Positions 42 through 11,983 of a DNA stretch of 64,000 bases are shown in pieces; position 1 is the stretch's first letter; every line of letters starts with the position of its first letter. Where the stretch lies: the NCBI GenBank assembly GCA_034520965.1, contig JAXHMY010000002.1, positions 352,001 through 416,000 of the forward strand, written 5' to 3'. This DNA comes from Spirochaetia bacterium. GTDB taxonomy: Bacteria > Spirochaetota > Spirochaetia > DSM-16054 > Sediminispirochaetaceae. The notes under the pieces are model-generated. The model did no database searches and was not told the DNA's origin. It saw nothing but the letters and a program-made list of their open reading frames with translations. Both the position numbers and the translations under genes were made by a program.

Positions 42-1682
42 GTGCTGCTTAAAAAGCTCCCGCCAAGCTCACACATTATCGCTGTTGAACAAGAGCCCCA
101 ACTTGCCGCACTTAGCATCTCGCACCAGCCTCTTGAACTCAGCCGGAACGAGCAGCTGGACATAGGATTTTATCCGGAGGGAGGGCTTGAGGCTGAGGTT
201 CCCGCTGGTAACAATCCTGAATCCGGCAGCGCTGAAACAGAAGGCCATGCAACTAGCAGCGCTGAAACCAAGGCTCCTGAATCCGGCGCCGCCGGAGACA
301 TTTTTAAGTCGATACCGGCACTGGTTAAAAAACTCGGTATTGAACGCTTCCGCCGGGTGCGTTTGCTAACCCTGAACGGGGGGTATCGCCTGAACAGCCG
401 CCGCTACACAGAGCTGGTACAACTTTTAGAAGAGGAGGTTCAGCAGTTCTGGCATAACAAGTATACCCTCATGCATATGCTGCCTCTCTGGATAAAGAAT
501 ATTTTGCGCAACCTTGCCCTGTGTACCTTCCCGGCAGGAGCCTCGGACACGGTGCCCGAAACAAAACTATCTCACCTGGAAAGCTGTCCTCGGTTTGGTT
601 TGCCGAAGACCTCCCTTCCGGTACTGGTTGCCGGAGCAGGCCCCAGCCTCGACACGCACATCGACTTTATCCGCCGCTATCGTGATACTATATATCTATT
701 AGCCGTGGACACCGCCTACTCTGTGCTTCTGCAGCACGGTATTAAGCCCGACATGGTGGTGGTGCAGGAGTCTCAGTTCTACAATCTGTACGACTTCATT
801 TACCAGCCCCGGATCGAAGCCGACATTCTGGCGGATATCAGCAGCTACCCCCAGGTCATTCGTCTCGGCGCCGGCAACATCTATTTATACGCCACCGAGT
901 TTGTCCATACTCAGCTATTCACCCGTTTGCAAAAGGTCTCACTGCTGCCGCCCCGGATTCCCCCGCTGGGATCGGTTGGTACCACCGCTGTCCATGCCGC
1001 CCTCTCTATCACCGACTCAACGGTAATTCTGGCGGGCATCGATTTCGCCTTTCCCCCGGGCCAGACCCATGCCCGCGGCGCCCCCCGCCATCAGCTGAAC
1101 CTGCAGCACAGCCACCGCTTTCTGGGAATCGAGGATATGTGGCCTCGCACCACCAAGGGTGTCACACGCACTCCAGACGCCTCGGATGCCTTGGGAGTTC
1201 CACTGCGTACCACCCCAAGCCTAAGGCGCTATGCAGATAATTTTACGCGTGTATTTCATTCTTTGGATCGGATGCTCTTGTTAAAGCCCCGGGGCTTACC
1301 CTTAGGTATACCGGAGCTCACGCAAGCTGAACTTGCCCCTTATCTCTCGTCGGTAGAAAAACGGTTAATGCCCCATCCTTCTCCATCCCTGCCCGCCATG
1401 GGCGATAGTGAGGCTGTTGAGGGCTTTCTACAGCGCGAACAGAAGCTGCTGCATTCAATTTACACCCAAGGATTAGCCTTTCTTGAGGGACGGCTGTCGG
1501 AAGCGGAACTTTCGAAGCTGTCCTTGGATATACACCGCTGCGAGTATCTGTTTCTGCATTTCCCTGAAACAGGGCCAAGCCTGCGCAAGCTGGAGCCGGC
1601 CATGATAAAACGGATAATGGTTACTGCCGGCCACTACATTCGGGTGATCGACGAGGCGCTGGAGCTTATTCCTCGCTCTTAA
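42..1682 (+). CDS. Maf/DUF115 (MptE-like) motility-associated factor family protein; probably starts before the window
   Basis: [29 protein letters not shown] and LAGIDFAF motifs typical of DUF115. Confidence 0.75.
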
Positions 1683-3481
1683 GCACCGAGACAAAGGCCG
1701 ACTGGGGCAGCTCTACATTTCCAACCATCTTCATCCGCTTTTTACCCTCTTTCTGCTTTTCCAATAGCTTGCGCTTACGGCTGATATCTCCGCCGTAGCA
1801 CTTGGAGGTTACATCTTTGCGGAGGGCATTGATAGTCTCCCGGGCTATAACGGTATTCCCAATAGTTCCCTGCAGAGGAATTTTGAACTGCTGCCGGGGT
1901 ATCTCGTCCTTCAGTTTTCGGCAAATAGTACGGGCCCGGGAAACAGCATTATCCTTATGCACCAGCTGGCTCAAGGCATCCACCGGTTCGCCGTTTACCA
2001 GAATATCGAGTTTCACCAGCTCGGTTCGCTTATAAGGTCCGATTTCGTAATCGAAGGAGGCAAAGCCCCGGCTCACCGATTTAAGCTTGTCGTAAAAGTC
2101 GAAGAGTACCTCCGCCAGAGGCATCTCGTAGGTTACCTCAACCCGCTTTTCATCCAGATAGTTCATAGCCTTCTGAATGCCCCGTTTCTCCAGACAAATC
2201 TGAATTATGTTGCCCAGATATTCGGCGGGAGTGATAATGGCTGCGTCAATGTAGGGCTCTTCGGCATACTCAACCTTGGTGCTGTCCGGATACTCAAGGG
2301 GATTGTCCACGTCGATTACCTCGCCGCTGTTTCAGGTGAACCTTGTAGCGGACCGAAGGAGCGGTGAGAATAATTGAAAGGTCAAACTCCCGTTCAATCC
2401 GCTCCTGCACTACTTCCAGGTGCAGCAGCCCTAAAAAGCCGCAGCGAAAGCCGAAACCCAGGGCCGCGGAGGAATCCTTCTCGTAAATAAGGGAGGCGTC
2501 GTTCAGTTTCAGCTTATCGATGGCCGTTCGCAGCTCTTCGTAGTCGTTGGTGTCAATCGGATAAATGGAGGAGAAAACCACCGGTTTGACCTCTTTGAAG
2601 CCCTTCTGCGGTTCCGCACAGGGGTGCTTGTCGTTGGTCACGGTGTCACCAATACGAACATCTTCAATGTTTTTTATGCCGGCAATCAGATAGCCCACCT
2701 GTCCGGCATTAAGATTTTCACCCTTCTCCAGTCCCAGCCTGAAAATTCCGGTCTCTTCAATGGTATAGGTGGTGTTGTTCCACCACAGGCGAATCACGTC
2801 GCCGGCCTTCATAGTCCCTTCAAACACACGGACGTGAATAATTACCCCGCGGTAGGCATCATACTTGGAGTCGAATATCAGGGCTTTTAGGGGCTGGTCG
2901 TCGGTTCCGGAGGGGGCCGGTATATGATGAACAAGAGCCTCCAGCAGGTCATTGACCCCCTCCCCTGATTTTGCCGATACCAGCACCGCATCATCCGGGT
3001 CCAGCCCCAGGTCGTGCTCGATTTCTCGTTTTACCATCTCAATATCGGCACTGGGCAGGTCGATTTTATTAATCACCGGTATTATTTCCAGGTCTAGTTC
3101 AACGGCCATATACATATTGGCAAAGGTCTGCGCCTCAACCCCCTGGCTGGCGTCAATCAACAGCAGCGCCCCCTCGCAGGAGGAGATAGCCCGGGAAACT
3201 TCGTAGGCAAAATCAACATGTCCCGGAGTATCAACCAGGTTCAGTTCGTAGATATTCCCGTCATCCGCCTCATAGGGCATGGTAATTGCCTGGGATTTGA
3301 TGGTAATACCCCGCTCACGTTCAATATCCATATTATCGAGATATTGCTCCTTAAAATTACGGGCCTCAACTATCTTAGCCTTTTCGATAAACCTATCGGC
3401 TAGGGTAGATTTCCCATGGTCTATATGGGCTATTATGCAGAAGTTGCGGATAAATTCTTTAGGTGTATGTAGAGTAGACAT
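1666..3481 (-). CDS. lepA: Elongation factor 4 (LepA). The native start ATGA (5342-5339) is separated from the rest by a group II intron; an intron-supplied ATG lies at 3481. One frameshift near 2332
   Basis: [39 protein letters not shown] and C-terminal [23 protein letters not shown]. Confidence 0.97.
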
Positions 3482-5338
3482 ACTATCGCCTTCCTTCATT
3501 AAGGGGGTTACGATAGCATGCCCCTCCCAGAACCGTACGTGCGCAACTAACGCATACGGCTCCTAGCACTAAACATTCGACCATTGCCAGATGTCTTTGC
3601 AAATTCTGCGGTCTTGGTATTAATTTCCATATCTTTTCAAACGTCTCCCAATTTATCTTGTGCTTCTGACCTCTCCGCCTTAGAGCCTTATACAGCGTGT
3701 ATCTGATGTATTTATAGAACTTGTACAGCCCTATTCAGATTTCCGTTGACCCCATAGTAATTGTAGTGCCCAACCAGTTTCCGGCTTAGTGCTCTCACAA
3801 TCTCCATGACAGGTCGATGCATATTCCATCTAATCCACTGCTTTGCGCTCTCGCGTTTAGCCTTCAGCTTCTTCTTGCTAGTGAGGTGCAGAACTGTGTA
3901 CTTACCAGTCCTTGTACTGGCATTTCACGTGGGTGAATCCAGAGATCAAATGTCTCCTTGGTTCCTTTGTACCTTCCAAATGGAATAATCCTTGTCTTCT
4001 CTTCGGCCACCGTTAGCTTGAACTTTGCAAGCCTTTTAAGCATCACCTCGTAGAATCTTTTCGCATCATCCTCGTACTGGAACAATACCACATAGTCATC
4101 CGCATAACGGTATAAGTATGCCTCACCCCTCAAACACCTTTTCACTACCTTCTCAAACCACAAGTCGAGTACGTAATGAAGATAGACGTTAGCCAGCACC
4201 GGCGAAATAAGCCCTCCTTGCGGAGTCCCCTTGTCGCTGTCGCTGACGTTCCCATTCTCCATGATCCCCGCCTTGAGAAATCTTACTACATAACGGATGA
4301 AATTCTTGTCCTGTATATCGTTCTCAAGAAACTTCACCAGCCATTCGTGGTCGACATTGTCAAAGAACCCTTTGATGTCGGCATCAAGAATATAATTTAC
4401 CTTCTTAGTCATGATCGTTTGGTTTATCTCCCGTATTACATCATGACAATTCCGATTCGGCCTGAACCCGTAGGAACAGTCCAGAAACCTCGGCTCGTAT
4501 ATCTCAGTCAGCACCTTCGCCATTATTCCCTGTACGAGTTTGTCCTCATACGCCGGGATTCCCAGCGGTCGTACCGTGCCATCCGTCTTGGGTATGTATG
4601 TTCTTCTCACCGCCTGCGGTCTGTAGCTGAAGGATTTCATCCGTCCAAGCAATGCATCCACATGCTCTTCCAGTCCGGACTCATAGCTCTCCTTCGTCGC
4701 TCCGTCTATGCCTGCGGCTTTTCCTCTGACCTGCGCCCGATGCTCTGCCTTCAGATTCTCCCTGTTGACGTAGTGCATGAGCGTCTGCATCTTTGCGTGA
4801 CTCTCCGACAACCTCCTCAACTCCCCATAGCTATTTTCCACTCTTTCAGAACCTCCAGTGTTCCTGGTGTTGGCCACAAGAAATACGTTTAATGCCCAGA
4901 CCCCTTCGCTCCACCGACTTTCACCGGTTTCATCGCTACTATGAGTCTGTCCGATTGCTGATGCCCCATACAGGTTTCTTGACTCCTCGCCTTTACGTCC
5001 CCTCTTAGTCCAACGGACAGGACATCAGCCCTCCCAGGTACGCTTGATCTACCTTGTGTGCTCGCCATGCTCTCAGACCCCGTTGGGTTCTCTGCACTCT
5101 CGCCTTTTTCCGAGCGCTTCTTGCTGGTTGCTGTCATATGAAAAACATCACCACCCAATCTTTATACTAACGAGGCTCAATCACGTTCAACCTTTCGGCT
5201 TATGGCTCTCACACTCCTTTGCCTACGCTTAAACCTCACCTCACGGCTTCGGCTCCAAGGCTAAGTACCGGCTGTTGGCTAGACTTTACCGGACAGGGTG
5301 TCTCACCCTGCTATATATCAAACGCCGAACTGGCGCAC
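3469..5338 (-). mobile_element. Group II intron (1870 nt; endonuclease-minus IEP, resembles bacterial class E/F)
   Basis: 5' GTGCG at 5338; domain V GAGCCGTATGCGTTAGTTGCGCACGTACGGTTC; domain VI hairpin with bulged A and 3' end CTACTCTAC at 3469; removing it restores ATG AAT ACA CCT AAA GAA ([10 protein letters not shown]). Confidence 0.95.
3569..4877 (-). CDS. ltrA: Group II intron reverse transcriptase/maturase; frameshifts in the X domain (about 3945, 3730, 3600); no HNH domain
   Basis: KAAGIDG, RPLGIP, SYGFRP, DADIKGFFD, GTPQGGLISPVLANVYL and YADD; the shifted frame continues with KLVGHYNYYG. Confidence 0.93.
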
Positions 5339-5349
5339 TCATTGGGTTT

Positions 5350-5378
5350 ACTATAGCTTAATATTCGATCTTCATCAA
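5350..5378 (-). promoter_or_regulatory. sigma70-type promoter of lepA, probably leaderless
   Basis: TTGATG-17 nt-TATAGT, then 7 nt to the ATG at 5342; no Shine-Dalgarno sequence. Confidence 0.6.
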
Positions 5379-5395
5379 CAAAGCCGGCCCATTAA

Positions 5396-5533
5396 CAGCG
5401 ATTCTCAATTTGGAAGTCTTCTGACTTCCAAATTGAATTCACATGCAAATGCTTGAAATTTTTATATATCTTAACTTTGGAGGCATTCTCAATTTGGATA
5501 GCGTAATTACACTATCCAAATTGAGAATTGCTG
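5396..5533. mobile_element. MITE-like element, copy 1 (138 bp)
   Basis: TIR CAGC(G/A)ATTCTCAATTTGGA (18/19 match); 9-bp TSD GCCCATTAA at 5387-5395 and 5534-5542; two internal hairpins. Confidence 0.85.
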
Positions 5534-5552
5534 GCCCATTAAAGAAAGAGTG

Positions 5553-7484
5553 TCAGTCTGTATAGGTGTCATCAAGCACCTCGCGTACCACTTTGACAAA
5601 AACTTCGGGTGAGAAAGGTTTGGATATAAAGGGAAATTCAAAATCCGACCCCAAATCAGACTCGCTGCCCTCTGTCTGCGCGGAGTTGTGCTTATGAGGG
5701 TATCCCGACATGTAGATAACCTTGGTGCTGGGGCGTAGTTCGAGAAAATGTTTCGAAAGCTCTTCTCCGCCCATTCGCGGCATAACCAAATCAGTAACCA
5801 GCACATCAAACTTATGCTCCTCGCTCCTGGCCAACTCTAAAGCTGTTTCAGGGCCGTCCGCTAAATACACGGTATATCCGTACAACTTCAAAATACGCTC
5901 AACGAGGTTTCGAAGACTCTTTTCGTCTTCCACCACTAGTACCGTTTCCGTTCCGGAGTAAGAGGGTTCCATACCTCTCTTACGCGTAGGGGCTTTCTCG
6001 GTACTGCGATACAAGGGCAAAAGGATCCAAAAGGTCGAGCCCTCATTGGGCTCCGTTTCAACCTGCAGATACCCATTGCTCTGCTTTACGATTCCGTACA
6101 CGGTTGAGAGACCGAGTCCGGTGCCCTTCTCTTCCGACTTAGTAGTAAAAAAAGGTTCAAATATCATCTTAAGCATATGAGACTCAATTCCCACCCCAGT
6201 ATCTCGTACCGCGGCGCATACATAATTTCCCGGAGGTACTTTTCCCATCGGTGAGGGTTCCGGACTATCAACTTGATAATTCGTAGTTCGGATTGTGATG
6301 CGCCCCCCCTGGGCCATAGCATCCCGGGCATTTACAATCAAATTCATCAGCACCTGCTCAATTTGTCCGGGATCTACCCATACTGTATCCGGATCAGCGC
6401 TTAAGTTAAGGTACATTCCAAATTCTTCGGTAACCAAACGGCGCATCATTTTTTCAAGATTATGAATCAGTTCGTTCATATGAACTTGTTTTGGTTTTAG
6501 AATCTGCCTGCGACTGAAGGCCAGCAGCTGCCGAGTAAGGGTCGAAGCCCGTTTGGCAGCCTCTTGGATGCCCGACACCTCATTTTCAATAGCCGTATCC
6601 TGCTTCACAAGCTTTTCTTGAACAATAGTACTGTAGCCAAGAATGACCGTGAGGATATTGTTAAAGTCGTGGGCTACCCCGCCCGCAAGCCGGCCAACTG
6701 CCTCCAGTTTTTGCGCCTGCCGCAGCTGCTGTTCGAGGTTTTTACGGGTGCTAATATCTATAAGGTAGCCGTTTATCTCTGTAATAGCGTCGCTTTCATC
6801 GGTATCTGCAACAACATTAGCCAGCAAATTCAATTTACTGCCGTCGGCGCGCAGCAAATCCAGCTCATGCAGAACTAAACGCTTATGCTGCTTAAGCTGC
6901 TTCCAGAAATCAGCTGCCTGACTTTCATCGGGAAAGCGGGAATTTAAGTAAGTACCCTCGACTTCAGCCGCATTTTTAAACCCGAAATAATCTACAAAGG
7001 AGTGATTACAGGCTAAAAAAACGCCCTGAGCATCGGCTACAAAATCTGCGGATACATCTTCCTCAAACAGCCGGCGGTAACGCTCCTCGCTTTCCTGTAG
7101 TTGAGTTTCAAGTTTGTGACGAAACAGGGCCATTTCGATATTAGTACGCAGTTCCCTCTCTTCGAAGGGTTTTATAATATAACCGAAGGGTTCAATGAAC
7201 TTAGCCCGTTCGATCGTTTTTTCGTCGGCATAAGCGGTAAGTATGATAACCGGCACACGGAATTGTTCACGAATTATCTGAGCAGCTTCGATACCATCCA
7301 TCTTACCCTGAAGACGGATGTCCATCAGTACTAAATCGGGTGCTTCAGTTTTGAATTGAGAAATAGCTTCTTCACCCGACGCATGGGAGCCTACTACTTT
7401 GTATCCGAAGGACTCTAAATGCCGACGAATATCAAGAGCTACAACCCCTTCGTCTTCTACAATTTGTACTTTAAGCTGGGCCAT
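5553..7484 (-). CDS. Hybrid sensor kinase (REC-PAS-HisKA-HATPase-REC)
   Basis: N-terminal VEDE/LMDI REC; GGVAHDFNNIL H-box; NLIVNARDA, DTGVG, FEPFFTTK, GTGLGL; C-terminal REC. Confidence 0.92.
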   Translation of the reverse strand: MAQLKVQIVEDEGVVALDIRRHLESFGYKVVGSHASGEEAISQFKTEAPDLVLMDIRLQGKMDGIEAAQIIREQFRVPVIILTAYADEKTIERAKFIEPFGYIIKPFEERELRTNIEMALFRHKLETQLQESEERYRRLFEEDVSADFVADAQGVFLACNHSFVDYFGFKNAAEVEGTYLNSRFPDESQAADFWKQLKQHKRLVLHELDLLRADGSKLNLLANVVADTDESDAITEINGYLIDISTRKNLEQQLRQAQKLEAVGRLAGGVAHDFNNILTVILGYSTIVQEKLVKQDTAIENEVSGIQEAAKRASTLTRQLLAFSRRQILKPKQVHMNELIHNLEKMMRRLVTEEFGMYLNLSADPDTVWVDPGQIEQVLMNLIVNARDAMAQGGRITIRTTNYQVDSPEPSPMGKVPPGNYVCAAVRDTGVGIESHMLKMIFEPFFTTKSEEKGTGLGLSTVYGIVKQSNGYLQVETEPNEGSTFWILLPLYRSTEKAPTRKRGMEPSYSGTETVLVVEDEKSLRNLVERILKLYGYTVYLADGPETALELARSEEHKFDVLVTDLVMPRMGGEELSKHFLELRPSTKVIYMSGYPHKHNSAQTEGSESDLGSDFEFPFISKPFSPEVFVKVVREVLDDTYTD

Positions 7485-7889
7485 TTAGCCGTCCACCGCA
7501 ATGCCGATTTTTTTTAATTCCTGCATCATCTTTACGTTCTCTATGGGTTTTACCAGATACGTGTCGGCATGTCCCTCATGAAGGGCTTTCAATACGTAGT
7601 TGGGGTCGCTCAAGGCTGTAGTCATAACCACCTTCGCTGCCTCACTTTGTTTCACACTCCGCTCGTTTTCAATCATTCGCATTTTTTTCAAAGCATCCTG
7701 ACCATTCAGTTTCGGCAGCATTATATCCAAAAAGATCAAGTGGAAAGGCTCCCCAGAGTCTAATGCCGATTTAAACATCTCTACCGCAGTTTCTCCATCC
7801 TCAGCAATATGTATTTCACCTAACGGTTCGAGAAACTGCTGCAACAAAAACCGTCCTGCAACATCATCTTCAACTATCAGGATCCTCAT
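7485..7889 (-). CDS. Single-domain response regulator (CheY-like)
   Basis: ILIVEDD, FLDIMLP, MTTA, YLVKP. Confidence 0.9.
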   Translation of the reverse strand: MRILIVEDDVAGRFLLQQFLEPLGEIHIAEDGETAVEMFKSALDSGEPFHLIFLDIMLPKLNGQDALKKMRMIENERSVKQSEAAKVVMTTALSDPNYVLKALHEGHADTYLVKPIENVKMMQELKKIGIAVDG

Positions 7890-7964
7890 TAAATCACCTC
7901 TACACCTATTGTATACTGCTATTCAAGCTTTTTCAAACAGTGGAAGAATAAGCTCTTAGAAAAA

Positions 7965-9829
7965 CTAAGGTGCTCCTGCATTGGCTTCCCTTAACTCCTG
8001 TAGAATTTTCTGTACCTTCGCGCCATTTTTGCTTCGACAAGCCATCATAAGCTTGAACAGACGTCCGGAGGTATCCTGATCCTGGATCTGTTGAGCAATT
8101 TTTCGAATCCGCTGTGCCTCCTCCTCAAGCTGGTCATACTCGGTGCTCTGTAAATTCTCTGCATCCACTGTATATAAACCCGAGAGCAGATCCTGCAGCT
8201 CGCCAAGCATATATGCTTGCTTGTGCTCTTTCTGCTGCTCCTCTTGCGGATTCTTCTGTGGTGCCTCCTGTGGCACAATGAGTTGTCTCAAATAGAGAGT
8301 GTGTGCGGCGTCCGGCCACAGCTCGTCTGCAGCGCCCATCAATAGATGATTCAGCTGCTTCAGCAATTTACGTCTGAGGATAGGACTATACAAGTAAGTG
8401 GCGGCAGGGTCTTCCTGCACATTTTTCCGGCTGCTGCGGACAAGATATAACAGTCTCGTTGGAGAAACGCCCATCTCTCTGAGGCTTTTTCCGATTCTAT
8501 GGCATACGGTGAGGGTATCCTCAATCACAAATAGACTCCCGGAGGCTAGCTTGTATTCACCTGATCTGTCAGGGATAGTAAGGGGTACCCCCCAAGTCTG
8601 AAATTGGCGCCGTCGTATTTCGGTGGTGAAAGAATTTGAACTTAAATAAAACACCGGGGGAGCGCTGCGGAAATCCGGAGAATCTAAAACCTCTCTGTCA
8701 TCAAGGTCTCCAGGTTCAAGCTGCAGCCTAAAGGTAAACTCGCTCCCTTCACCTACGGTCGAGGAAAAGTCGATGGTACCGCCCATAAGGTGAATCGTAT
8801 CATTCACAATCGCCAAACCCAATCCGGCTCCATCATGGGCACGGGTAGAGGTACTGTCCACCTGATGAAATGATTTAAACACATTCTGCCGTTCCGATTC
8901 GGGAATTCCGCATCCGGTATCACGAATCCGACCGGCTAGAACTATTTTATCTTTGTGTACCTCATCAGGTTCGGTTTTTACCTTCAAATGCACCCAGCCA
9001 GTGTTCGGTCAAATTTAACAGCGTTACTCAGCAGGTTTACCAGTACTTGCTCTACTTTGTCCGAATCACCGTGAAGATGAAAACGGCTAGTTTCATCTAT
9101 CTCAATATATACACCCAAGTTCTTCTTCTGTATCTGAGTCCAGAGTTTGTTTATCGAATTCTCGAATAGCTCGTCCAGATAAAAATCATGTGTATTGATA
9201 ACAACCTTACCCGCTTCTACTCTAGAAAACTCTAGGAGTGAATCGATCATGGTCAAAAGGTTCCTCCCAGAGCTCTCTATAATCTGCAAATACTCCTTCT
9301 GCTCCTCGGGCTCATTGGTTTTTTGTGCCAACTGGGTCATCCCAAGGATACTGTTCAGGGGGGTTCGAAGTTCATGACTCACATTCGCTAAAAAGCCACT
9401 TTTCGCCCGGCTTCCCGCTTCGGCTTTTTCTTTTGCCGCTATCAACTCTTGCTCAATTTTGTATTTATACAAGGCCATTTCAATGGTGGAGTAAATCTCC
9501 CGTTCCTGAAAAGGTTTAAGAATATATCCGAAGGGTTCGGTTACCTTCGCCCGGGCTAGGGTGGTTTCATCGGAATAGGCGGTAATATAAATTACGGGAG
9601 TCCCTAGGGTACTTTTGATGCGTTCAGCAGCCTGGATACCATCCATATTCCCCTTAAGGTGAATATCCATCAGGATCAGATCCGGTTTCTCTTGTTCTGC
9701 CTTCGTTACGGCATCTTCTCCCGACAGAACATGCTCTATTACCGAATACCCAAGCGCATTGAGCCGTCGCTCCATATCCATAGCCACAATGCTTTCATCT
9801 TCTACGAGTAAAATTCGTACGGATGCCAT
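7965..9829 (-). CDS. Hybrid histidine kinase (REC-HisKA-HATPase), split by a frameshift near 9000
   Basis: REC; FLANVSHELRTPLN; NLLSNAVKF, then DTGCGI and GAGLGL in the next ORF. Confidence 0.88.
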
Positions 9830-9920
9830 AAAACTACCCCATAATTGTTAACGGCTATTTCCTTAACAGTTTCGTATGCCGCGTTGCGGCAACCGAAACA
9901 AGGAAAATAGCCGTATTCGG

Positions 9921-10565
9921 CTATTTTCTTAATAGATTCCACTCAACCGCCCGCTGTATTAATTCAGTAGAAGAATGCAGATCTAATTTTGTTTTTAAGT
10001 GAGACTTGTAGGTTTCGATTGTTTTTACACTTAAAGTTAAGCGTTTGGCAATTTCCCGCGTCTCCAGCCCATCACCAATCATACGGAATACTTCAAACTC
10101 CCGGTCGCTCAGAACATCAATTAGGGAAGTTTCTTTTTGTAAATTGCCTGCAAATAGTGATAACATTCGCTCTTGCATATCATCACTCAGGTACATAGAG
10201 CCCTTTAGTACGGTCCTAATTGCGGTCATTACATTTTCGGTAGCTTCACTTTTCATTATGTAGCCTTTCGCTCCGGCTCGAAGTGCGCGTTCGGCATATA
10301 CTCGCTCGTCATGCAGCGATATCACCATAGTTTTTACTCTTGGATACTGCACATTTATAATTTTAATTAATTCAAGGCCATCGCTCTCTTTTAAAGTAAG
10401 GTCCACTAAAGCTAGGTCCGGCTGCGTCTCGGAAATAACTGTCTGAGCAGACAGATGATCTTCAGCCTCCCCTACTACGGTAAGGTCCGACTCCCGATTG
10501 ATAAGCTGGGCAAAACCTTTACGCACAATCGGATGATCATCAATAATTACGATGCGTTTCTCCAT
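9921..10565 (-). CDS. NarL/LuxR-family response regulator
   Basis: IIDDHPIVR REC plus LSDREFEV...IAKRLTLSVKTIETY HTH. Confidence 0.93.
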   Translation of the reverse strand: MEKRIVIIDDHPIVRKGFAQLINRESDLTVVGEAEDHLSAQTVISETQPDLALVDLTLKESDGLELIKIINVQYPRVKTMVISLHDERVYAERALRAGAKGYIMKSEATENVMTAIRTVLKGSMYLSDDMQERMLSLFAGNLQKETSLIDVLSDREFEVFRMIGDGLETREIAKRLTLSVKTIETYKSHLKTKLDLHSSTELIQRAVEWNLLRK

Positions 10566-10576
10566 CAGTGTTCCTT

Positions 10577-11983
10577 CTATTGAAATTTTGGATGAAATTT
10601 TGGAACCCGACAGATTACAGTGGTTCCGCTGTGTTCATTATCAAAAATAGAAAGGTGTCCATTTATGATGTTCGAACGAAACTCCATTATTTTTAAACCT
10701 AATCCCTGGCTTTCATGCCGCTCAATACCTTTTCCATTATCACGAACCTGCAAAAAATACTCGGAATCCTCTTCCTTTAACAATATCTCAATCTTTTCTG
10801 CATCTCCATAGCGTTTTGCATTGGTAATAGCCTCCTGGGCAATATGATACAATTGGGTAGCCATAGTTCCGTCTGTAATATCGTTCTCCAGATCAGTCTT
10901 ACACTCTATCTTGCAGTTATACAGGCTCTCTATCTGCAGAGTGAGTTCTTTTAAGGCAACCGATAAACCCTGATTTTCCAGAGTCACCGTAAGTAGATTT
11001 TTGGCTAAATTGCGTGTCTGTTTAATTGACTGGTTTACCATATCCTGTATTCTCCGTGCAGACTCAACTTCCTCTGGGCATTCTGACTCCTGCAGCTTAT
11101 TCTCCAGCAGTTTTAACTGTAAAGATATCCCTGTAAGATTCTGCCCAAGATTATCATGCAAATCTTTTCCGATTCTTCGGCGTTCTTTTTCAGATATTTC
11201 AAGAATCTCTCGCTCCAGCTGTTTTTTGGCGGTGATATCCCGGGCAATGAGAGACACACCGGTGACCTCATTCATCAAACCGCGAATCGGATTAATTTTC
11301 AGAGATATATTAATCACCTCGCCGTTTTTTCTCTGCCTCACCGTCTCATAGTGCTCAACTTCGATATTATCACCTATTTTGTCTAAAATATCCGGCAGTT
11401 CATTGGGATAAAAGGGAGGCGTAAGAAGAAGTAGATTTTTACCGCGAACATCTTCCTCGGTATAACCAAATATTTTTTCAGCCCCCTTGTTCCAACTGAT
11501 GATGGTCCCGTCCAAGGTTGCACCAATTACGGCATCGTTGATGCTCTTAAGGGTGATAGATAGAATCTCCTCATTTTTTCGCGCCTCCAGCTCCATTTTA
11601 TGTCGGTAGAGCGCCATCTCGATCATGGAGTGCAGATCGTTTTGATGGGAACTTTTGGTTATGTACCCGTAGGGTTCAGTTTTTTTAGCCCGGGACAGGG
11701 TATCTTCGTCTGAAAAGGTAGAGAGAAAAATGAAGGGGATGCTGAAACGTCTACGCAGATATTGGGCTGTCTCAATTCCATCTAACTCGCCCTTCAGCTT
11801 TACATCTAACAAGACTAAATCCAAACTGTGAGCGCTGATTACTTCCAGTGCTTTCTCGCCGGTCTCGACGGGTGGAAGAACAGTATAACCCAATGATTCC
11901 AGGGTGCGTGTGAGGTCAAGGGCGACTATCTGTTCGTCCTCAACAACCAGAATAATCGGCTTATCGTCATGATTATTCGACAA
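10577..11983 (-). CDS. REC-PAS-HisKA_3 sensor histidine kinase
   Basis: REC; PAS (WNKGAEKIFGY); ERRRIGKDLHDNLGQ; QEAITNA; DNGKG; GLGL. Confidence 0.9.
   Translation of the reverse strand: MSNNHDDKPIILVVEDEQIVALDLTRTLESLGYTVLPPVETGEKALEVISAHSLDLVLLDVKLKGELDGIETAQYLRRRFSIPFIFLSTFSDEDTLSRAKKTEPYGYITKSSHQNDLHSMIEMALYRHKMELEARKNEEILSITLKSINDAVIGATLDGTIISWNKGAEKIFGYTEEDVRGKNLLLLTPPFYPNELPDILDKIGDNIEVEHYETVRQRKNGEVINISLKINPIRGLMNEVTGVSLIARDITAKKQLEREILEISEKERRRIGKDLHDNLGQNLTGISLQLKLLENKLQESECPEEVESARRIQDMVNQSIKQTRNLAKNLLTVTLENQGLSVALKELTLQIESLYNCKIECKTDLENDITDGTMATQLYHIAQEAITNAKRYGDAEKIEILLKEEDSEYFLQVRDNGKGIERHESQGLGLKIMEFRSNIINGHLSIFDNEHSGTTVICRVPKFHPKFQ

Follow-up and report, generated by a model that had tools for sequence, protein, structure and literature searches.

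How can a group II intron sit 4 nt into a gene such as lepA? The locus that raises this question lies in a 64,000-nt stretch of the genome of a Spirochaetia bacterium (GCA_034520965.1, contig JAXHMY010000002.1, positions 352,001 to 416,000; hereafter the window, to which all coordinates refer). Here a group II intron of 1870 nt (5338-3469, minus strand) splits lepA at ATGA|ATA. On balance it seems probable that an intron without endonuclease has settled at a site composed of a promoter box and AUGA, that splicing restores a leaderless lepA mRNA, and that a Shine-Dalgarno (SD) sequence and an ATG inside domain VI of the intron act as a limited fallback for translation. Promoter-proximal insertion and start signals matched to the phase of insertion are the parts of this account that are well supported by the sequences compared below.

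An intron within the start of lepA

On the minus strand the 5′ junction (5339/5338) reads ...AAACCCAATGA|GTGCGCC, the intron starting with GTGCG after ATGA (5342-5339), and the 3′ junction (3469/3468) reads ...CTACTCTAC|ATACACC, the intron ending in ...CTCTAC at 3469. Rfam places group-II-D1D4-6, a domain I-IV family, at 5068-5303 (121 bits; the match runs from intron position 36 over 236 nt) and Intron_gpII (domains V-VI) at 3469-3564, terminating exactly at 3469. The hallmarks of group II introns are present: a GUGYG 5′ end, an AY 3′ end, domains I, V and VI with a bulged A, and pairing of exon-binding site 1 (EBS1) with intron-binding site 1 (IBS1). The genome holds three copies (C1, the window copy and C3), the other two being 99% and 96-98% identical to that in lepA; because all have the same ends but different flanks, the 1870-nt boundaries are fixed, and the junctions proposed in the first-pass annotation hold by sequence, Rfam ends and shared copy ends alike. 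All three copies follow ATGA, with TATAGT 10-11 nt upstream. The C1 copy is placed like that of the window, in a gene for a LuxR-type response regulator. The C3 copy (G000:C3:54398-59859) lies mid-gene in a TcmP-like open reading frame (ORF), with its ATG out of frame and its reverse transcriptase (RT) gene frameshifted; it is interrupted at intron position ~400 by a 3.6-kb IS66 element, and it has TATAGT 11 nt upstream although it is mid-gene. All three copies are on the G-rich strand, a sample too small to use (n=3).

Splicing in silico restores the LepA N-terminus (MNTPK..), as had been proposed, and the ATG at 3481 gives MSTLHTPK.. in the same frame. Intron-free lepA alleles, which the first-pass annotation had suggested seeking in relatives, were found in the same genus: the seven with a parsed start all begin with MN (MNTPK in six, MNRRK in one) and none with MSTLH. 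In the DNA run X1, one contig joins 3468 to 5339 with exactly 1870 nt skipped, which is the intron-less junction, and another runs across the 3′ junction into the intron; therefore both lepA alleles exist as DNA. It is possible that X1 was made from the source sample itself. The explanation favoured here takes the intron to be recently mobile. No copy was found in the five same-genus genomes searched with the intron (82-97% complete).

The predicted lepA promoter and probable recognition of the target

Upstream anti-SD binding of lepA amounts to +0.4 kcal/mol in the window and to +0.4 to -3.9 kcal/mol in seven relatives, that is, no SD, and TATAGT lies exactly 7 nt ahead of the lepA ATG in all seven relatives. 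Because of these two features lepA is probably leaderless, and exon 1 would then measure 4-5 nt; the earlier description of the intron as supplying a replacement ribosome-binding site was thus inexact. The predicted lepA promoter is the sole promoter-like site in 3300-5700 and has a 17-nt spacer, although shuffles give 3.2 such sites and the prediction is not significant alone. In the precursor an 18-codon frame runs from the native AUG into the intron, so that the bases bound by EBS1 would also be contested by ribosomes at the 5′ end.

EBS1 covaries with the target: the window copy has UCAUAU and copies inserted at GCATGA have UCAUGU, and from this match with the exon end across copies we infer recognition of the start codon through base pairing. 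What the intron targets seems to be the promoter box plus AUGA rather than a start codon as such, since the mid-gene C3 copy has the same box at the same distance.

Near lepA we also observed that in several families of the class (loci L092-L120) lepA starts 6-8 nt past a TATAGT/TATAAT-like box, suggesting that leaderless lepA is widespread. Directly upstream of the lepA promoter (5396-5500) lies a palindromic repeat of ~105 nt with ~49 further matches in the genome, which varies between relatives at this position and looks like an element of the miniature inverted-repeat transposable element or repetitive extragenic palindrome type.

Promoter-like boxes and EBS1 pairing across the lineage

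The survey covered 80 of 161 genome loci and 80 of 539 metagenome loci, the best in each case, together with 4 viral loci, two copies from genome G370 and those of the genome itself. For the RT tree (FastTree), 161 RTs of at least 330 aa were reduced to 126 representatives at 95% identity, leaving out six short RTs and the frameshifted window copy, and the ingroup was the node of 90 representatives (support 0.96) that holds the window's subclade. After loci without 5′ flank, duplicates and one tandem case had been dropped, 75 unique sites were retained. A match of at least 5/6 to TATAAT is found 9-14 nt before the splice site at 43 of the 75 sites, 17 of them at a gap of exactly 10, compared with 4% in shifted windows, 3.3/75 in shuffles, 2/12 in the outgroup and a background of 0.7% per position. 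Among the 48 sites with a box of at least 4/6, 33 also have a -35 match or a TGn extension. Where domain VI carries an ATG at -13, the box stands at gap 10-11 in seven of the eight sites listed (one a 4/6 match), and the genome background of a box at that distance is 152 of 16,769 ATGA(A/G) sites.

In 53 of 72 cases EBS1 forms at least 5 bp with the exon end at its own site (permuted mean 22.4, maximum 32). Across the lineage no common column for EBS2/IBS2 and no common RNA complement of the -10 box was found (best 9/72 and 9/45), so recognition of the box by a protein or the polymerase is likelier than RNA pairing. The viral contigs gave no match for two DNA patterns and 4 distant RT loci, and the domain V-VI pattern of the window's type of intron (type A, below) was matched in 3 of 401 genomes of the class. 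Two tandem arrangements were also seen: at L121 a second copy begins 7 nt after the first, at the next ATGA, and at L178 one intron begins directly at the 3′ end of another.

A spare start in domain VI

The SD-like word in domain VI, AAGGAAGG (3496-3489), is predicted to pair with the 3′ end of the genome's own 16S rRNA at -8.3 kcal/mol; the earlier claim of an SD 7 nt before an in-frame ATG in this domain is thus confirmed by the sequence and the predicted pairing. There is a further in-frame ATG at 3499. A domain VI hairpin of -25.8 kcal/mol holds the spare ATG in a paired state (unpaired probability 0.00; stem z -4.4), again as first described, and the folding of domain VI and the loading of a ribosome are predicted to be mutually exclusive. 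Opening the spare start costs 15.3-17.9 kcal/mol (17.9 in the like-for-like frame), whereas 217 native SD-led starts have a median cost of 7.8 kcal/mol and a 95th percentile of 16.4 kcal/mol. The first-pass view that the insertion is nearly silent does not survive in that form: the cost exceeds the 95th percentile of native starts, so the insertion is not silent by default, and some relatives lack the spare ATG. Translation of unspliced RNA would therefore need unfolding or a kinetic window.

Such a window could, as a hypothesis, be given to ribosomes during transcription by an alternative hairpin between GAGGGG and a pyrimidine tract, predicted at -8 to -12.6 kcal/mol in five variants, with 52 of 54 cells pairing in six variants. 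The 3′ strand of domain VI is more conserved than its 5′ strand (1/13 versus 4/10 variable columns in six variants). A promoter inside domain VI was considered and rejected, its TATCGT being present in the window and C1 copies and absent from five other variants.

Domain VI designs and insertion positions

Three designs of domain VI fit three insertion positions (an ATG at -13, a terminal ATG, and an SD with a predicted hairpin), a correspondence well supported by sequence. Type A, that of the window, inserts after ATG(A/G) and has its spare ATG at -13; among the six sites with both flanks, four (C2, C1, L202, L123) have long in-frame ORFs, a proportion to be set against 26 of 152 for similar motifs elsewhere in the genome (binomial p about 0.01, for sites that are kin and not independent). 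The check proposed in the first-pass annotation, that homologous introns should share the SD and ATG, is answered in part: the in-frame starts are there at these four of six sites of the window's subclade, and some relatives do without. L190 has the type A design but is nested among type C introns (support 0.99), its frame being open over the 25 codons at hand.

Type B inserts after the start codon and ends in ATG, in frame at all six sites with both flanks. Type C, the largest, inserts after an SD-like word at 27 of 35 sites, and its domain VI has an SD followed by GTCGAG, which is complementary to the terminal CTCGAC. An ATG that opens at least 40 codons (or a frame to the sequence end) stands 3-13 nt into exon 2 in 39 of 49 cases, versus 4/25 and 3/31. 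From SD to ATG the median distance is 29 nt along the sequence and 9 nt once the predicted hairpin is discounted, and the hairpin conformer lies a median of 3.7 kcal/mol above the splicing fold; since the hairpin arms are by definition invariant, covariation offers no test of it. The box is present at 24 of 38 type C sites, versus 81 of 1308 and 4 of 59 native SD-led starts (6-7%).

Anti-SD binding of -7 kcal/mol or stronger in the 3′ part of domain VI is predicted for 5/6 introns of type A, 5/6 of type B and 50/52 of type C (60/64), versus 2/22 in the other ingroup introns and 3/32 in the outgroup. The SD changes in sequence yet keeps its strength, e.g., -11.7 kcal/mol in L011 and -9.3 in L123. 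In L123/L124 ~225 nt including EBS1 are deleted from domain I, the RT and the spare start are intact, and the downstream ORF has a hydrophobic N-terminus; this copy is likely splicing-dead, and its gene would depend on the start in domain VI.

Two further observations concern members of the survey. The 3′ end of L219 (G370:C1:2180139) adjoins a transposase-like element with a frameshifted ORF, and the sequence beyond this element revealed no displaced exon. L012, L065, L067, L068, L165, L166 and L170 share an internal motif within a domain VI that is long (112-121 nt) and are scattered over distant positions of the tree, which suggests exchange of domain VI between introns.

Features of the locus and quality of the assembly

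Table 1. Position of lepA, its predicted promoter and the intron elements in the window.
Feature	Position	Strand	Evidence or remark
-35-like hexamer TTGATG, predicted lepA promoter	5373..5378	-	TTGATG in 6/7 shown same-genus alleles, TTGAAG in the seventh
-10-like box TATAGT	5350..5355	-	7 nt before ATG, 11 nt before 5′ splice site; 7/7 shown same-genus alleles
lepA exon 1 (ATGA) = IBS1; probably first 4-5 nt of leaderless transcript	5339..5342	-	leaderless status inferred
Group II intron	3469..5338	-	Rfam, copy ends, X1 joint skipping exactly 1870 nt
EBS1 loop UCAUAU	5136..5141	-	UCAU pairs with AUGA of exon 1; copies at GCATGA read UCAUGU
RT/maturase gene, no endonuclease domain	3569..4790	-	indels near 3608, 3736, 3923 and 3940-3942 in window copy
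Domain V, AGC triad, 5-nt loop	3529..3562	-	Rfam, fold
Domain VI with bulged A at 3475	3469..3526	-	sequence, fold
Predicted alternative hairpin (GAGGGG with CCCCUU)	3501..3526	-	can form before SD is transcribed; weak alone (z -1.15)
SD-like AAGGAAGG, apical part of domain VI	3489..3496	-	7 nt before ATG at 3481
Intron-borne ATG, 13 nt from 3′ end, in frame with exon 2	3479..3481	-	sequence
lepA (EF4) exon 2, with probable assembly frameshift near 2332	1666..3468	-	only lepA found in the assembly

The intact RT/maturase of the C1 copy has 406 aa and scores 371 bits with TIGR04416 (cutoff 300); Pfam finds RVT_1 alone and no C-terminal endonuclease. The RT indels of the window copy are not seen in the C1 copy or in the short-read contigs of three runs, one contig among them crossing the lepA junction. 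The +1 frameshift at ~2332 in lepA consists of one extra A that extends an A run, absent from all three relatives aligned. Comparison with 143 kb of a relative (101 ORFs, 58 past the orthology filter) found 8 of the 58 orthologs frameshifted in this assembly, and no listed X1 contig bridges 2332. The lepA frameshift and the RT indels are probably assembly errors. Farther upstream of lepA (5553-11983) response-regulator and histidine-kinase genes are clustered, and some of them seem to be divided by frameshifts.

Proposed explanation and alternatives

According to the account that we favour, the EBS1 loop pairs with AUGA, and the intron protein or an open promoter likely recognises the -10-like box. 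The precursor would begin as pppAUGA-intron, the host promoter transcribing the intron from almost the first base, and after splicing the lepA mRNA would be back in its native leaderless form (MNTPK..). Ribosomes would be able to fall back on the SD and ATG of domain VI to initiate on unspliced RNA (MSTLHTPK..), a route that is probably limited and mainly available before or instead of domain VI folding, for example as long as the 5′ strand of domain VI is held in the early alternative hairpin. A bolder version, which we put forward tentatively and with some doubt, sees here a fourth target specificity: the intron would home to the first bases of transcripts, its RT or the open RNA-polymerase complex reading the -10 element, and domain VI would be a co-transcriptional translation switch rebuilt in at least three ways, each RNA either feeding the host gene or folding to splice.

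Several points, besides the cost of opening the spare start, weigh against this account. The contig with the intron-less junction has a depth of 3.3, and the short side of its joint is only 30 letters long. Thirty-two of the 75 sites have no box, and among type B sites it is present at 1/6; both the clade node and the gap of 9-14 were picked with the data already in view, and the sites are related rather than independent. For the alternative hairpin, one-sided changes only and no two-sided covariation were seen (z -1.15). Among the six type A sites, two do not provide in-frame starts (C3, which lies mid-gene, and L219, adjoining the transposase-like element), and in L235 the frame opened by the ATG at -13 closes after 8 codons. 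The first anti-SD control was passed by 26 of 32 outgroup introns, and its window was afterwards narrowed to exclude the G-rich 5′ strand. The sister introns L057/L128 have an ATG at -13 with a weaker SD and no start-codon target (L128/L129 insert after TTA), so the ATG can be part of the stem by descent and may predate any function. Conversely, L016, L132 and L134 occupy in-frame ATG(A/G) sites, yet their domain VI has 40 nt and no spare start, and L012, with an RT 82% identical, has no spare start either, its exon 2 having its own SD and ATG.

These exceptions also bear on the alternatives. The apparent targeting could be a selection filter, in which the intron needs nothing more than AUGA|R, promoter-proximal copies at gene starts are expressed and survive, and the spare start still rescues translation. 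EBS1 alone indeed accounts for ATGA, the spread of an intron requires transcription, and the boxless sites (5/6 in type B) fit such a filter; but the distance is sharply fixed, with the peak at gap 10 standing far above background, and the mid-gene C3 copy has TATAGT at gap 11, where a filter on gene starts would not act, so that we regard this alternative as unlikely. The SD and ATG of domain VI might instead be a structural by-product or serve the intron itself (e.g., by ribosome binding that protects the RNA), LepA being made from spliced RNA only. The spare ATG is fully paired and costly to open, is also present in a sister intron with another target and is missing from some start-codon inserts, and protection of Ll.LtrB RNA by ribosome association is on record (accessible Discussion of PMC12584367). 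What makes this reading rather improbable in our view is that three different designs each fit their own insertion phase, that the SD varies in sequence and stays strong in L011 and L123, and that the 3′ strand of domain VI varies less than the 5′ strand.

A dead insertion in a pseudogene, with lepA and RT truly frameshifted and nothing expressed, would agree with the lepA frameshift, the four indel sites of the RT gene and the lack of an X1 contig bridging 2332. We consider it very improbable, since frameshifted orthologs are common in this assembly (8/58), the extra base extends an A run and is missing in the three relatives, the RT indels are absent from short-read contigs including the one across the lepA junction, and the intact C1 RT could act in trans on the window copy.

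Significance

According to existing descriptions, bacterial group II introns reside in mobile DNA or behind terminators. If the account of promoter box, AUGA and fallback start is true, landing behind promoters with a translation start of its own would be the opposite strategy to hiding and would account for the presence of an intron in a gene like lepA; the likely benefit is the use of host promoters without silencing the gene. With this intron one could test in compact form whether an intron RT recognises promoters, how splicing works with a start-codon exon of 4-5 nt and whether ribosomes control folding of the branch helix. For annotation the consequence is that such genes receive a wrong N-terminus yet look intact. 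New here are the probably leaderless lepA, the enrichment of boxes behind which the lineage inserts, and three domain VI designs matched to insertion position.

Comparison with known systems

Michel et al. in 2007 reportedly defined the specialised IIB1/CL1 clade at start and stop codons. In the accessible text of PMC12584367 this clade (Avi.groEL, EcKTE56.groEL) is proteobacterial, with a domain I insertion of 300-700 nt and an endonuclease. The lepA intron resembles it in lying in or next to translation signals of housekeeping genes with the signal preserved (there a stop codon is replaced), but its RT has 406 aa and no endonuclease, and only 548 nt in all precede the ORF, so it is not a member of the clade as described there.

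With class E/F introns (accessible parts of PMC3753933 and PMC3552965) it shares the lack of an endonuclease, about 650 nt of RNA outside the ORF and the 5-nt loop of domain V; neither start-codon nor promoter targeting is described in these parts. According to PMC3753933, class E/F introns can splice in vitro without EBS2, and an exon of 4-5 nt is therefore plausible. The same paper gives an alpha' element at the tip of a stem-loop and an additional bulge in DId3 as features of class E. Membership in classes D, g1, g2 and g3 was rejected, the labelled references (one each, from the tables available in PMC3552965) showing 30-36% RT identity and all falling outside the node of the lineage (0.985). 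The nearest RT, at 42%, is an unlabelled one from S. meliloti pSymA, the labelled set compared being D, g1, g2 and g3. The 5-nt domain V loop and the absent endonuclease are both class E features, domain V looks E/F-like, and class E is the likely affiliation of the intron.

The target types of bacterial group II introns in the accessible part of a 2015 review (PMC4424553) are homing sites, terminators and attC, none of them promoter-based, and the portions of PMC7306698 and PMC8919778 at hand do not mention a promoter-targeting lineage. Our literature search found no description of a promoter-proximal lineage or of an SD/AUG in domain VI, which is not proof of absence, as most subscription papers were outside its coverage.

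Phage T4 genes 25 and 38 have a hairpin in the native phage leader that shortens the SD spacing. A distant SD is likewise predicted to be brought near the start codon in type C introns, except that there the hairpin is made of the intron's own 3′ end and would compete with the branch helix.

Class C (IIC) introns have a short domain V with a CGC triad. Membership of the lepA intron in this class was rejected: its domain V is of full length (34 nt) with an AGC triad, and the 5′ junction has no terminator-like site. What the two have in common is that a short IBS1 and an upstream landmark that is not paired define many unrelated target sites. They differ in the landmark, IIC introns inserting after terminators or attC sites and so avoiding expression (PMC4424553, as far as accessible), whereas the lepA lineage lands after -10 boxes.

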